From: Escherichia coli
GTDB taxonomy: Bacteria; Pseudomonadota; Gammaproteobacteria; Enterobacterales; Enterobacteriaceae
Strand: one strand, 5' to 3'
Assembly (NCBI RefSeq): GCF_051903065.1
Contig: NZ_CP178438.1
DNA length: 64,000 nucleotides
Shown here: piece after piece, positions 3,168-50,907 of the stretch
Layout: every line of letters starts with the position of its first letter
Position numbering within the stretch: the first letter of the stretch is position 1
Notes under the pieces: model-generated
The model's input: only the letters and a program-made list of their open reading frames with translations
The model's database searches: none
What the model was told of the DNA's origin: nothing
Program-made: the position numbers and the translations under genes

Positions 3168-3626
3168 ATGTATCCCCTGCGTGTCGATCTGCGCGCTGGC
3201 ACCTTCGCCGCAGATCCACTCTTCCAGACGCTCGGTAAGCGCTTCATCCGTCAGCTTCTCGCGCCCACGTAACGCGCACTCCCAGACAATCAATACGCGC
3301 CAGCCGAGTTCCTGCAAGCGACTGATATCGCGGCGATCGCGCTCAACATTTTTACCTATCTTCTCCAGCCAGAACTCGGTTCGAGTCGCAGGCACTTTAA
3401 ACAGATAGCAGTGATGATGGTGCCAGAAGCAGCCGTGGGTAAATATCACGCAACAATATTCATCAACGACAAAATCCGGGCGTCCGGGCAGACTGGCGTC
3501 CTGAACGCGAAACGCCAGGCCCTGCCCGGTTAACAGACTGGCGAGGCGCTTCTCTATCGCCGTATTACGCGTGGCAATCGCGCGCATATTTTTGCTGCGA
3601 GTGGCCTTATCGTGAACGTCGGCCAT
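3156..3626 (-). CDS. vsr: Very-short-patch repair endonuclease Vsr
   Basis: 156 aa beginning [22 protein letters not shown]; start ATG at 3624-3626 lies inside the dcm 3' end (20-bp overlap). The track's 210-aa ORF is an upstream in-frame extension. Confidence 0.9.
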
Positions 3627-5025
3627 GTTGTGCCTCTTGCTGACGCAACGCCACCGCCTGTTTGATTTTTGGCTCAAGCAGTTTTGCCACCGCGGCAAAG
3701 ACCGGCACGACCACCGAGTTACCGAGCTGGCGATAGGCCTGAGTGTCCGAAACCGGAATGCGGAATTTCGCTTCTCCCGGCGCTTCAAAACCCATTAAGC
3801 GCGCACATTCCCGAGGCGTTAACCGACGTGGACGATGTTGCTGATTCAGCGGATCGTCAAAGTCTTTCTCACCCGTGGCCATATCCCAGCCGCGATCGAT
3901 TAAAATTTCCGCGCCATCTTTGTAATAACGCGCAGACAGCGTACGCGTGACGCTTTGCGGATTGTTCGGATAAACCATTCCATAACCGAAGCCGTTACCG
4001 CGCGCCTGATGTTTTTTCGCATAACGATAGAGGTACTTCCACAGCACCGGCGTCAGGATATATTTCGCCTCGACCATCGGGTCCAGCAGCTGCGCCAGCG
4101 TCACTCGCTGTGCAGGGAAACATTCGCTGATATCACGCAGAGTAAAATCGGCTTTCAGATTAAGATCGCGACGAAAACCCACCAGCACGATGCGTTCACG
4201 GTGCTGCGGCAGGAAATGTTTACCATCGATGATTTTCGGATCGTCCGGCCCGTTATCTTCTGCATCAGCCACGTCATAGCCCAGTTCGTCCAGCGTCTGC
4301 ATGATGATGCGGAACGTTTTTCCTTTATCGTGACTTTTCAGGTTTTTGACGTTTTCGAGCACAAACATCGCCGGACGACGCGCGTCGATAATACGCACCA
4401 CATCAAAGAACAGCGTGCCCTGGGTATCGCAGGCAAAACCGTGCGCCCGCCCGAGCGAGTTCTTTTTCGATACGCCAGCCAGCGAAAATGGCTGACAAGG
4501 GAAACCGGCCAGTAAAACATCGTGTTCAGGAATGTGTTGACGAATATGTTCCGCCGCCGCCTCATCACTCACGCCTTCTTTATGGCTGAGGGTGATGTCG
4601 CGGATATCTTCATTAAAATGATGCGTCGCCGGGTCGCAATAATGATTGGCTTTATAAGTGCGTACCGCATGTTTGTTCCATTCGCTGGTAAACACGCACT
4701 GTCCGCCAATCGATTCAAAACCGCGACGGATGCCGCCAATTCCGGCAAATAGATCGATAAAGCGAAACGCATAATGCGGATGATGTGCCGGTGGTTTGGG
4801 TAACAACGTTTGCAGATGGGCGAACTCTTTCTCACTTAAACGGTGCCATGCCGAGTCATTCGCCAGCGCACGTTTTAAAATTGCCGCGCTCCAGTGATTC
4901 TCACCCACACCATTAAGCTGCGCCACCAGCGTTTTAACATCATAAATTTGCAGCAGTTTCTCCAGCATTGCCTGTGCGGCATTCCCGGTGCTGTATGAAT
5001 CGGTTACTGATATATTTTCCTGCAT
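3607..5025 (-). CDS. dcm: DNA-cytosine methyltransferase Dcm (CCWGG)
   Basis: 472 aa with C5-MTase motifs DLFAGIGG (motif I) and GFPCQPFS (motif IV catalytic Cys). Confidence 0.92.
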
Positions 5026-5826: not shown

Positions 5827-6210
5827 TTATTCATAGCGTCTGCTACGTGCGGGACGAGGTCGGGTGTACCAGGCAATGCTGCCTAACAATGCCCCGACCA
5901 GAGCCATAAATAAAAATCCGACCAGTGCCCCTAACCACTTTCCCGCGGTAGAGCCTAAATCGCTTTCAAATCCCGACACGGGGGCATCGGGGATCCGGCT
6001 CATCACCCAGATGTAACGCGCCATTGCCCAGACGAAATAGCCACACCATGTATAGAAAGCCCACAAAGCCAGTTTGCCGCCAGGGCTGCGAGAGAGTCTC
6101 TCTTCCATCTTTGTCGAACCGTATTCCATTTTGAGATAACCCGGAAAATTCAGACTTAGTACTATTATGTGATAAAAGTCACATTTTTCCACATTGAATG
6201 AGCCAGTCAA
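5827..6210 (-). CDS. yedR: Small inner-membrane protein YedR
   Basis: 127-aa ORF with two hydrophobic helices; exact start uncertain. Confidence 0.6.
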   Translation of the reverse strand: MTGSFNVEKCDFYHIIVLSLNFPGYLKMEYGSTKMEERLSRSPGGKLALWAFYTWCGYFVWAMARYIWVMSRIPDAPVSGFESDLGSTAGKWLGALVGFLFMALVGALLGSIAWYTRPRPARSRRYE

Positions 6211-6355
6211 GACTCAATCATTTTTTGAACAAATAGATAAATTTTGCGCAACGGCAGTGAATACAGGAAAAATCGTTTTGAGCGATTTTATTTATCTTTG
6301 ATATCGGCTTTATTAATTCATTTAATCAATATATTAGCACTGAATACAATTATAC

Positions 6356-6446
6356 CTTTTTATTTTTCTGTGTCATGATGCCTCCGTTATTAGCCTTTTA
6401 TCGTCTTGTTTATATTTTTTGGGCCGGCATGATGCCGGCTTTTTTT
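6356..6446 (+). ncRNA. rseX: Putative RseX small RNA (yedR-yedS intergenic)
   Basis: Intrinsic terminator GCCGGCA-TGA-TGCCGGC plus T7 ending at 6446; RseX is known to lie between yedR and yedS. The 5' end is an estimate. Confidence 0.4.
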
Positions 6447-6757
6447 ATGCCTTCATTAATGTGCGCGTGATCACACCAGCCGTTTAGCGCAACAATCATT
6501 GATACCCCCTATCTTTCCGCTCAACTCATAACATATTGATATGCATTTATAATCTTCATGAATGCTTATATTTAGAATTCATAATTCTGAATTATATTAA
6601 ATAGATTGGAAACATTTTGAAATCTTTTAAATATATTTGTTACATGTAATCCTTAAAATAAAATGAACTTCATAGAATAGTATCCAAATGTGCTTTTTTT
6701 TGGATAACGGCACTTATTGATATATTCATGAAGATTATAATCACAAGGGAATACATA

Positions 6758-7945
6758 ATGAAAAGAAAAGTTCTGGCAATGCTGGTCCCGGCGTTATTAG
6801 TTGCTGGCGCAGCAAATGCGGCTGAAATTTATAATAAAGATGGCAATAAACTGGATTTGTACGGAAAAGTAGCGGGCCTGCACTACTTCTCTGATGATGC
6901 TGGCAGCGATGGCGACATGTCATATGCCCGTATCGGTTTCAAAGGTGAAACTCAGATCGCTGACCAATTCACTGGTTATGGTCAGTGGGAATTTAACATT
7001 GGCGCAAACGGTCCTGAAAGCGACAAGGGTAATACCGCAACGCGTCTGGCATTTGCAGGTTTCGGCTTTGGTCAGAATGGTACTTTCGACTATGGTCGTA
7101 ACTACGGTGTCGTATATGACGTAGAAGCATGGACCGATATGCTGCCAGAATTTGGTGGCGATACCTATGCTGGCGCTGACAACTTCATGAACGGTCGTGC
7201 TAATGGTGTTGCAACCTACCGTAACAATGGCTTCTTTGGTCAGGTCGATGGCCTGAACTTTGCTCTGCAATATCAGGGTAATAATGAAGATGATGGATTA
7301 TTCGGTCAGGAAGGTTCTGGTAACGGTAATGGCCGTAAGTTAGCTAAAGAGAACGGCGACGGCTTCGGTATGTCCACTTCCTATGACTTCGACTTCGGTT
7401 TAAGTCTGGGTGCTGCATATTCTAACTCTGACCGTACCGACAATCAGGTTCACAAAGGTACTCATAACACTCGTTATGGAGATCGCTTCGATGCAACTGC
7501 TGGCGGTGAAACAGCAGAAGCATGGACCGTTGGTGCTAAATACGACGCTAATAACGTTTACTTAGCAGCTATGTATGCTGAAACCCGTAACATGACTGGT
7601 TACGGTGATGCTGATGCCATCGCTAACAAAACCCAAAACTTTGAAGTTGTTGCTCAGTATCAGTTCGACTTTGGTCTGCGCCCGTCCATCGCTTACCTGC
7701 AATCTAAAGGTAAGGATTTAGGCGGTGTAAATAGTGATAACTTCGACAGCCAGGGTAATCATCACTACACCAACAAAGATCTGGTTAAATATGTTGATAT
7801 TGGTATGACCTACTACTTCAACAAAAACATGTCCACCTATGTTGATTACAAAATCAACCTGCTGGACAACGACGACGACTTCTACAAAGAAAACGGCATC
7901 GCTACCGATGATATCGTTGCTGTGGGCTTAGTCTACCAGTTCTAA
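6758..7945 (+). CDS. yedS: Outer-membrane general porin (OmpC/OmpF family), intact YedS-type
   Basis: Signal peptide [21 protein letters not shown], porin N-terminus [16 protein letters not shown] and C-terminal ...VGLVYQF; RBS AAGGGA 8 nt upstream of ATG 6758. The track's ORF starts at an upstream ATG (6728). Confidence 0.8.
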
Positions 7946-16170: not shown

Positions 16171-16260
16171 TGGCGGAGAGAGGGGGATTTGAACCCCCGG
16201 TAGAGTTGCCCCTACTCCGGTTTTCGAGACCGGTCCGTTCAGCCGCTCCGGCATCTCTCC
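16171..16260 (-). tRNA. serU: tRNA-Ser (serU)
   Basis: Reverse complement reads GGAGAGATGCCGGAGCGGCTGAACGGACCGGTCTCGAAAACCGGAGTAGGGGCAACTCTACCGGGGGTTCAAATCCCCCTCTCTCCGCCA; long variable arm; CCA encoded. Confidence 0.9.
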
Positions 16261-17251: not shown

Positions 17252-17327
17252 TCCTCTGTAGTTCAGTCGGTAGAACGGCGGACTGTTAATCCGTATGTCA
17301 CTGGTTCGAGTCCAGTCAGAGGAGCCA
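17252..17327 (+). tRNA. asnT: tRNA-Asn (GUU)
   Basis: TCCTCTGTAGTTCAGTCGGTAGAACGGCGGACTGTTAATCCGTATGTCACTGGTTCGAGTCCAGTCAGAGGAGCCA. Confidence 0.95.
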
Positions 17328-31627: not shown

Positions 31628-31703
31628 TGGCTCCTCTGACTGGACTCGAACCAGTGACATACGGATTAACAGTCCGCCGTTCTACCGACTGAACTACAGA
31701 GGA
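31628..31703 (-). tRNA. asnW: tRNA-Asn (GUU)
   Basis: Reverse complement is identical to asnT. Upstream on the minus strand: TTGACA (rc of 31745-31750) and TAATAT (rc of 31722-31727). Confidence 0.95.
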
Positions 31704-33451: not shown

Positions 33452-33527
33452 TCCTCTGTAGTTCAGTCGGTAGAACGGCGGACTGTTAATCCGTATGTCA
33501 CTGGTTCGAGTCCAGTCAGAGGAGCCA
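33452..33527 (+). tRNA. asnU: tRNA-Asn (GUU)
   Basis: Identical 76-nt sequence to asnT. Confidence 0.95.
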
Positions 33528-35860: not shown

Positions 35861-35936
35861 TCCTCTGTAGTTCAGTCGGTAGAACGGCGGACTGTTAATC
35901 CGTATGTCACTGGTTCGAGTCCAGTCAGAGGAGCCA
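35861..35936 (+). tRNA. asnV: tRNA-Asn (GUU)
   Basis: Identical 76-nt sequence; preceded by TTGACA (35814-35819), 17 bp, TAATAT (35837-35842). Confidence 0.95.
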
Positions 35937-41991: not shown

Positions 41992-42465
41992 TTAGTGATG
42001 TTTTGGCTGCACAGCAACATACATTTCGATATCCCAGTACCCATCTTCCGCGCCATTGTTCAAATAAACCTCGAAGCAGGGCTTTGGTAACATTTCATAA
42101 GCACTGTCCTGCAAGAGGCTATTAAAGAACTGATACCAGGGTTTAGCAAAATCATCACCGACTACACGAGCTACCGCCACCGCATACTGACCACCTGAAA
42201 TTTCTGTCAGAATGACGCCCTCACTGTTTTCGGGAAGCGTAAAGTAACCCGGCACCGTCACGACGGTGTCGCAGCGTAATTTTTCGGCGGGTGTTTCATC
42301 TGGATTGTCGTAATAGACAGCAACCCACTCCTTCGGCACAATATTTTTACTATCTACCCACATCATCAACTGCTCAAAACCTTTCTTTACCGTCTGTTCC
42401 CACGGGCCAACGAGATGGAAACCTGCAACGGTACGTTTATCTTCCTGCTTAATCTCGTAGTTCAT
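41992..42465 (-). CDS. sbmC: DNA gyrase inhibitor SbmC (GyrI)
   Basis: 157 aa; recognised sequence; LexA box immediately upstream. Confidence 0.9.
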
Positions 42466-42479
42466 GACGCCTCCATTAA

Positions 42480-48317: not shown

Positions 48318-48413
48318 TTTTTTGGATTCCTCAGCGACAACAACTGTCGATTTTTAGTAAATATCTATCCGGTACGAAGCCCGGCCTCTTGGTATGAATG
48401 ATTGGTTTGAAGC

Positions 48414-48450
48414 AAAAAATAACCGACGCTGATGAAACGTCGGTTTTTAG
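48414..48450. terminator. Bidirectional intrinsic terminator downstream of yeeY
   Basis: AAAAAAT-AACCGACG-CTGATGAAA-CGTCGGTT-TTTAG. Confidence 0.55.
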
Positions 48451-48531
48451 TCATTTTTTGACAGCGGCGCATTGTGCCTAAATGGGGGGGAAATGACAAG
48501 AGAATGAGAGGCTTGTCATAATAATTTTTCT

Positions 48532-50757: not shown

Positions 50758-50808
50758 ATGACACGCGTTCAATTTAAACACCACCATCATCACCATCATC
50801 CTGACTAG
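50758..50808 (+). CDS. hisL: his operon leader peptide HisL (MTRVQFKHHHHHHHPD)
   Basis: 16 codons with seven consecutive His codons. Confidence 0.95.
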   Translation: MTRVQFKHHHHHHHPD

Positions 50809-50870
50809 TCTTTCAGGCGATGTGTGCTGGAAGACATTCAGATCTTCCAGTGGTGCATGAACGCATGAGA

Positions 50871-50907
50871 AAGCCCCCGGAAGATCACCTTCCGGGGGCT
50901 TTTTTAT
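50871..50907 (+). terminator. his attenuator terminator
   Basis: AAGCCCCCGGAAG-ATCAC-CTTCCGGGGGCTT followed by TTTTTATT, directly upstream of hisG. Confidence 0.85.

Follow-up and report, generated by a model that had tools for sequence, protein, structure and literature searches.

The rseX small RNA gene and the adjacent intact porin gene yedS in a segment of the Escherichia coli chromosome

A 64,000-nt stretch of Escherichia coli DNA (hereafter the window) carries the small RNA gene rseX on its plus strand at 6357..6446. The gene is already known, and this is a re-identification at its known locus in a common allele; we found no evidence against it. Taking gene identity and mechanism together, the best overall explanation, which we hold with high confidence, is as follows. 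rseX would be an independent plus-strand unit for a trans-acting sRNA, embedded in the AT-rich, H-NS-silenced tract between drpB and yedS. Its transcription probably begins at 6357, with a possible additional or even predominant start at 6386, and should stop at an intrinsic terminator at 6421..6446. The U-tail and a U/A-rich spacer would make up the Hfq-binding type of module, and the single-stranded seed (nt 28–50) would pair with the Shine-Dalgarno regions of ompA and ompC, leading to blocked translation and then to mRNA decay, with the terminator loop serving a separate, published role in fepA repression. The RNA would normally be silent and appear once silencing by H-NS and StpA is lifted. 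Past the terminator, yedS would be expressed from a conserved promoter of its own, and the seed most likely does not target it.

The 91-nt RseX lowers OmpA and OmpC (PMC7648144). RseX has been shown to be an Hfq-binding RNA that is silenced by H-NS with StpA as a backup, natively undetectable until then, and fimB and ihfB are further targets (PMC8313858). Repression of fepA needs the terminator loop of RseX, apparently without pairing (PMC11979758), and over-expression of RseX relieves the need for the sigma-E pathway (PMC8313858, PMC1804206). In the present study, we addressed the identity, boundaries, terminator, seed conservation, predicted pairing and synteny of the window copy; Hfq binding, repression of ompA, ompC, fimB, ihfB and fepA, and H-NS silencing are taken from the literature, and we infer that the copy in the window strain behaves like the K-12 copy. 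The additions made here are incremental leads, namely, a spared neighbor, a conserved linkage, diverged orthologs and a possible seed-first short form.

Identity and boundaries of rseX

When the whole window was searched with all Rfam families, RF01401 (rseX) matched the plus strand at 6357..6446 with 96.7 bits (E = 4.9e-12). The gathering score of this family is 50, and the match covers model positions 1–94 of 94. The first-pass annotation had proposed an RseX-like sRNA here and had suggested alignment with the Rfam model, and the full-length match bears it out. It had placed the element at 6356–6446, of which the 3′ end (6446) stands, whereas the true 5′ end lies one base later, at 6357. These ends are those of the annotated ~91-nt form, the curated MG1655 ncRNA rseX (b4603, 2033649..2033739); the copy in the window is 90 nt long because its U-tail has 7 U, not 8. 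The window and MG1655 loci align end to end with 98% identity and share the gene order drpB (also yedR; 5827..6129, minus strand), rseX (plus strand) and yedS (6758..7945, plus strand).

Compared with K-12 RseX, the locus, strand, 5′ and 3′ ends, seed, and terminator stem and loop are all identical. Three differences fall within the RNA: U at nt 9 (A in K-12), C at nt 26 (U in K-12) and the tail of 7 U (8 in K-12). Both nt 9 and nt 26 are outside the seed, and nt 26 is within a hypervariable stretch. One more change is found at −13 of the upstream rseX promoter, and yedS, a pseudogene in K-12, is intact in the window.

A consensus terminator scan and the predicted fold both gave the intrinsic terminator at 6421..6446 on the plus strand, with a stem of 9 bp (6421..6441, 6 G-C pairs), the 3-nt loop UGA and a U7 tail. 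The GC stem plus seven T that had been pointed out on the plus strand of the yedR–yedS gap is present as GCCGGCA (6423..6429), TGCCGGC (6433..6439) and the T-run at 6440..6446. The scan found no further terminator-like site on either strand between 5800 and 6900. It had also been noted that there is no ORF to terminate here, and indeed the nearby plus-strand ORFs are only mechanical ones (44 and 31 aa, no Pfam match) and drpB lies on the opposite strand.

The downstream porin gene had likewise been described correctly as intact: yedS, of the ompS1 type, encodes 395 aa with a full-length Porin_1 domain (residues 27–395, E = 2e-141). In the near-identical strain ECNB21-M121, PGAP mislabels the intact gene as "ompC: porin OmpC", and rseX was left unannotated by RefSeq/PGAP in all the RefSeq matches inspected. 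Porin and sRNA counts taken from PGAP annotation are misleading in both respects. The window differs from ECNB21-M121 by 8 single bases in the first 26 kb; from ~26204 onward the two are out of register, probably through an insertion or deletion, and the ECNB21-M121 counterpart is an Ig-like-domain pseudogene upstream of a glycosyltransferase gene disrupted by IS903B.

Seven other Rfam matches were obtained in the window, at 16174..16260, 17252..17324, 31631..31703, 33452..33524, 35861..35933, 48412..48486 and 50784..50907. They comprise four identical tRNA genes (tRNA-Asn in ECNB21-M121), one longer tRNA (tRNA-Ser), the sRNA STnc240 (68.2 bits) and the his operon leader (131.6 bits), and are what this part of the E. 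coli chromosome ordinarily carries.

Parts of the RNA and a candidate short form

The seed of RseX, nt 28–50 (CCGTTATTAGCCTTTTATCGTCT; 6384..6406, plus strand), varies little or not at all across the range from E. coli to Citrobacter amalonaticus. An alignment of Escherichia species and C. amalonaticus showed nt 29–50 to be invariant, and the seed core CGTTATTAGCCTTTT is found exactly in Kluyvera and Pseudocitrobacter. By ortholog alignment, the hypervariable stretch consists of nt 24–29 (6380..6385, plus strand; GCCTCC here), which has a different sequence in almost every species and is 6–7 nt long. On the other side of the seed, the U/A-rich spacer at 6407..6420 (plus strand) precedes the terminator and is unpaired in the predicted fold. 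A U/A-rich spacer, a terminator and a U-tail form the usual Hfq-binding module of such RNAs.

For the 6357 start, a −10 hexamer TACAAT can be read at −12..−7 (6345..6350, plus strand), with a weak −35. It is retained with variation in Escherichia and becomes TACGAA in C. amalonaticus. A sigma-70 promoter of rseX has 5′ RACE support, according to PMC8313858, where Douchin 2006 is cited for it.

A second putative promoter lies inside the annotated RNA. The box TGTCATGAT (6371..6379, plus strand) is a 5′ element held invariant in 12 orthologs at TG, A2, A5 and T6 (12/12), while the remaining positions vary; as DNA, it could be an extended −10 element (TG-n-hexamer) for a start at 6386. All 12 orthologs show TG-n-[C/A]A..AT, then 6–7 variable nt, and then the invariant G(+1)TTATTAGCCTTTT. 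On the basis of this conservation pattern and a published start, we consider a candidate short RseX of ~61 nt (6386..6446, plus strand) that would begin with the seed. The conserved RseX would then be this seed-first RNA, made from the internal extended −10 promoter, a reading to which we give somewhat less than an even chance. It would further imply that the annotated 5′ 29 nt are promoter DNA and that the 91-nt form arises from an extra, Escherichia-specific upstream promoter, and the combination carries the same, not quite even, weight.

Several observations favor the ~61-nt RNA. Public 5′-end RNA-seq data place an rseX start at MG1655 2033678 (PMC7967276, Supplementary Table S1 and text), which equals RseX nt 30 and window position 6386. 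Within nt 12–29, only positions 15, 16, 19, 22 and 23 are invariant among the 12 orthologs; for a +1 at nt 30, these are the TG at −15/−14, the A at −11, and the A and T at −8/−7. The chance of 5 invariant positions among 18 including the four key ones is 0.0016. The hypervariable spacer of 6–7 nt follows, and invariance resumes exactly at G30. The 5′ stem of the Rfam model (nt 14–38) can form in the predicted fold of the window sequence; among the 12 orthologs, its stem-loop shows no covariation and 6 of 6 variant cells break pairs, so that these sequences lend no support to the secondary structure published for the 5′ half. If the short reading is right, the hypervariable "loop" of the Rfam hairpin would be the spacer that separates the −10 element from the start. 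The upstream −10 hexamer lacks its final T in C. amalonaticus. Seed-first architecture is also common among Hfq-dependent sRNAs, which we count in favor of the ~61-nt RNA.

On the other side, delta-hns northerns show 91-nt and ~75-nt forms with nt 12–38, and thus the upstream promoter works (PMC8313858). Predictions of the published fimB and ihfB interactions used full-length RseX, which has an accessible "region 1" at its 5′ end. Moreover, the 5′ end at nt 30 could be a processing site, and CATGAT is a weak −10 hexamer. A start at nt 30 was not found in the Cappable-seq supplement (Ettwiller 2016). The northern probe of PMC8313858 (nt 12–38) would be blind to the short form because that RNA would start at nt 30. 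If the conserved RNA does start there, earlier northern probes covering nt 12–38 missed the main species, which could help to explain why native RseX was undetectable for two decades.

The same stretch has features on the opposite strand. A strong sigma-70-like site, ATGACA-16-TATAAT (11/12), lies on the minus strand at 6376..6349, antisense to the 5′ end of rseX; it overlaps the rseX promoter, and its hexamers coincide with conserved rseX elements. We rejected it as the drpB promoter, as the mapped drpB starts are at window positions 6157 and 6177, where they match promoter-like sites at 6191..6164 and 6210..6183. The start table examined (Supplementary Table S1 of PMC7967276) has no mapped start for the 6376..6349 site. 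In addition, the reverse complement of RseX nt 16–29 (window 6372..6385) is GGAGGCATCATGAC, a perfect Shine-Dalgarno sequence plus ATG, and long RseX therefore resembles an anti-ribosome-binding-site. In the window allele, GGAGGCATCATGAC opens a minus-strand ORF of 8 codons (MTQKNKKV), which we treated as chance, the stretch being hypervariable between species.

Predicted targets and the status of yedS

Pairing was predicted using an IntaRNA-like local scorer, which combines hybridization and opening energies for interactions of up to 30 nt; unrestricted duplex folding of RseX with its targets gave meaningless full-length duplexes and was set aside for the local search. With K-12 target sequences, RseX nt 37–50 are predicted to pair with ompA −21..−7 (−13 kcal/mol) and nt 25–44 with ompC −28..+1 (−12 to −14 kcal/mol), in both cases covering the Shine-Dalgarno sequence. 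The invariant seed alone ranked ompA 2nd and ompC 3rd of 52 translation-start regions. The whole-RNA scores were only moderately better than those of shuffled RseX, with 9 of 60 shuffles as good for ompA and 6 of 60 for ompC. The predicted pairing with ompA and ompC agrees with the published mechanism.

The strongest predicted whole-RNA pairing was found elsewhere in the window. The start region of sbmC (~42452..42479, minus strand; UUAAUGGAGGCGUCAUGA...) is complementary to RseX nt 8–34 over ~25 pairs, including an unbroken run of 15 that covers the Shine-Dalgarno sequence and the AUG, with a score of −21.7 kcal/mol (−18.5 kcal/mol with the K-12 allele). It was the best of 50 gene starts, and none of 60 shuffles was as good. 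We rejected it as a conserved interaction, since it needs the hypervariable nt 23–28 (GCCUCC); for the same reason, it would be allele-specific at best and confined to the long RNA form. A literature search found nothing on RseX–sbmC pairing.

YedS is reported to affect carbapenem susceptibility, and with yedS intact in this strain, whether the adjacent RNA acts on it is a fair clinical question. The first-pass annotation had asked whether yedS is also a target of RseX, which would mean that RseX represses its neighbor by pairing with the yedS 5′ UTR. This reading is not without grounds: yedS belongs to the OmpC/OmpF porin family and ompC is an RseX target, a bulged A/U-rich duplex can be drawn between RseX nt 5–33 and yedS −14..+15 (−9.0 kcal/mol at best), and yedS mRNA falls 2.5-fold on sigma-E induction (PMC2731931). 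The pairing prediction, which is computational and of limited sensitivity, gave no support. By whole-RNA pairing yedS ranked 25th of 50 gene starts, and 34 of 60 dinucleotide-shuffled RseX sequences paired with it equally well or better. With the seed alone, yedS came 43rd of 52, followed by its orthologs from E. albertii (44th) and C. amalonaticus (45th), as against 2nd and 3rd for ompA and ompC. The yedS leader is nearly invariant across genera and carries no complement of the seed.

Warner et al. 2013 reportedly described control of YedS by MicF and MicF–yedS pairing, and we used this pair as a positive control for the scorer. The scorer missed it (−5.1 kcal/mol, with 37 of 40 shuffles scoring equally well), so it may yield false negatives, and its negatives are weak evidence. 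Weighing both sides, we consider repression of yedS by RseX improbable: yedS is most likely not a target of the RseX seed, and as far as sequence can answer, RseX probably does not touch it. The drop of yedS mRNA on sigma-E induction suggests that yedS is probably under some sRNA control, by other sRNAs. We also tried the idea that rseX derives from a porin 5′ end, as the RseX core and the yedS signal-peptide codons share CGTTATTAG; 14 of 500 shuffles reach this match, and it was put down to chance.

A separate promoter for yedS appears to lie beyond the rseX terminator. By cross-genus alignment, the putative promoter and leader at 6608..6757 (plus strand) are nearly invariant, and the ~150 nt before the start codon are almost unchanged from E. 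coli to C. amalonaticus and better conserved than the flanks of rseX, whereas the first ~160 nt past the rseX terminator diverge freely. This region contains the promoter-like sequence TTGTTA-16-TAAAAT (6637..6664, plus strand) and the OmpR-C1-like 11-mer ACATTTTGAAA (6612..6622), an exact match to the OmpR C1 box region that precedes ompC. ACATTTTGAAA has the same orientation as in ompC and a similar distance, and it is weak evidence taken alone, as 18 of 300 shuffles reach an 11-mer. Inverted repeats are also nested in the ~150-nt stretch; RNA folding predicted no special structure for the leader at 6671..6790 (z = −0.1). The entire drpB–yedS gap (628 bp) has 24–36% GC, compared with ~50% in the flanks, and because this holds throughout, it can be regarded as one tract of the H-NS-bound kind.

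These features bear on another possible role of the element, as a leader or attenuator of yedS in which transcripts initiated at the rseX promoter would continue past a regulated terminator into the porin gene. rseX does precede yedS in tandem on the same strand, at a distance of about 311 nt, this order and the ~310-nt spacing are kept in Escherichia and C. amalonaticus, and RNA-seq of "RseX and surrounding areas" rises together in hns mutants (PMC8313858). However, the terminator is strong (9 bp, 6 G-C, U7), no anti-terminator is conserved, the sole candidate (nt 22–26) falling within the hypervariable stretch, and beyond the terminator lies a promoter-like region belonging to yedS itself, nearly invariant and carrying the OmpR-C1-like box; these three points argue against a leader. 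In addition, sequence divergence is unconstrained in the first half of the spacer, the porin and the AT-rich gap persist in several genera that have no recognizable rseX, and RseX acts in trans from plasmids (PMC11979758, PMC7648144, PMC8313858). We therefore regard a leader function as very improbable.

Finally, that the element is a chance hairpin and T-run in an AT-rich spacer, or else a tiny coding gene (ORF 6375..6470, 31 aa), can practically be dismissed in view of the covariance-model match (E = 4.9e-12) and the cross-species conservation. The hairpin alone is no evidence for a gene because the terminator scan gives 1 site where shuffles give 1.0 ± 1.0, and the 90 nt do not fold with unusual stability (z = −1.5); what stands above chance is the covariance-model match and the conservation at the same locus. 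The overlapping ORF encodes 31 hydrophobic codons and was rejected as a gene: it lacks a Shine-Dalgarno sequence, matches no Pfam family, reaches its stop codon only past the terminator and spans the hypervariable stretch, and a 7-nt insertion in C. amalonaticus breaks the frame further along.

Distribution of rseX and comparison with known systems

The rseX stretch is present at the same locus in 4,876–4,898 of 5,426 complete E. coli genomes, and the window allele (≥99%) occurs in 1,076 complete E. coli genomes, including O157:H7. The presence of RseX varies within E. coli and Shigella through secondary losses (PMC3318445). Among the ~10% of E. coli without rseX, strain EC0026B (L015, locus 3310..4305) is one example of joint loss of rseX and the porin gene, in which an IS1 element stands in place of rseX, yedS and the 5′ portion of hchA.

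Species-representative genomes were scanned for the exact pattern, and an Rfam check of the results gave RF01401-confirmed copies in E. albertii, E. whittamii, two other Escherichia species, two E. coli clusters and C. amalonaticus. A betaproteobacterial MAG matched the search pattern and not the Rfam model, and was treated as chance. The exact-pattern scan found no Salmonella among the species representatives, and no DrpB homologue was named Salmonella; a Salmonella RF01401 hit has been reported (PMC3632133). Loci from other genera were fetched via DrpB homologues, and the E. fergusonii rseX obtained in this way scores above the gathering threshold. The order drpB–rseX–Porin_1 was seen wherever the flanks were readable, in E. 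coli, E. albertii, E. whittamii, E. fergusonii and C. amalonaticus and, for the diverged copies described below, in Kluyvera and Pseudocitrobacter.

A Porin_1 gene divergent from drpB across an AT-rich gap of 546–707 nt was found in E. fergusonii, Klebsiella aerogenes, Atlantibacter, Pseudocitrobacter, Kluyvera, Phytobacter and one further lineage, and was absent in Lelliottia. Over these DrpB-fetched loci, Rfam at E ≤ 1 detected rseX in E. fergusonii only. A profile built from the Escherichia alignment gave weak matches in Kluyvera (E = 1.7e-4) and Pseudocitrobacter (E = 8e-4). Both have the core CGTTATTAGCCTTTT on the porin strand within the drpB–porin gap and, 40–55 nt further on, an unrelated 12-bp terminator with U8; the TG-n-hexamer box is present, and the predicted fold has the same layout as RseX. 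We regard these as diverged rseX relatives, located on the minus strand at 3552..3659 of the Kluyvera locus (L022) and 3587..3704 of the Pseudocitrobacter locus (L021) and missed by RF01401 at E ≤ 1. With these relatives, which share the seed and differ in the terminator, the family is somewhat wider than Rfam detects. In the Phytobacter locus (L023), a terminator occupies the corresponding position and the 5′ box is similar, without the seed. Neither Rfam at E ≤ 1 nor the profile found a recognizable rseX in K. aerogenes, Atlantibacter or the one further lineage, and RseX RNA without the porin was never seen among the loci examined. On this sampling of loci, the porin is older or more widespread than the RseX RNA.

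A bolder reading, which in its entirety we consider rather unlikely, is that rseX and yedS form an old "porin-swap" cassette, jointly silenced by H-NS. Once silencing is lifted, YedS would be made from its own OmpR-type promoter, and a ~61-nt seed-first RseX from the promoter at 6371..6379 would remove OmpC and OmpA and spare YedS. The annotated 5′ third of RseX would then be promoter DNA rather than functional RNA, and the family, extending beyond Rfam to Kluyvera and Pseudocitrobacter, would conserve the promoter and seed with a replaceable terminator. It is only the conjunction of these points that we grade in this way.

RseX can be compared with other sRNAs that act on outer-membrane proteins. 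RybB and MicA are like RseX in Hfq-dependent repression of ompC and ompA. They are sigma-E-dependent, whereas RseX is sigma-E independent (PMC1804206), silent under standard conditions and narrowly distributed. In the pairs MicF/ompC and MicC/ompN, the sRNA represses a porin other than its neighbor; as with RseX/yedS, the sRNA gene sits beside a porin gene and represses other abundant outer-membrane proteins. Co-regulation of micC with the quiescent ompN has been reported (PMC5745476), and rseX and yedS share one AT-rich tract of the H-NS type. The linkage between rseX and the porin gene is conserved across species, as for micF/ompC, and the RseX seed does not match yedS. By contrast, micF and micC are divergent from their porin neighbors, rseX is in tandem upstream of its own, and there is no sequence relationship. 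The porin itself resembles Salmonella ompS1, which is quiescent, H-NS-silenced and OmpR-dependent and with which yedS was equated in an E. coli study (PMC2731931); the region upstream of yedS is AT-rich and has the OmpR-C1-like 11-mer.
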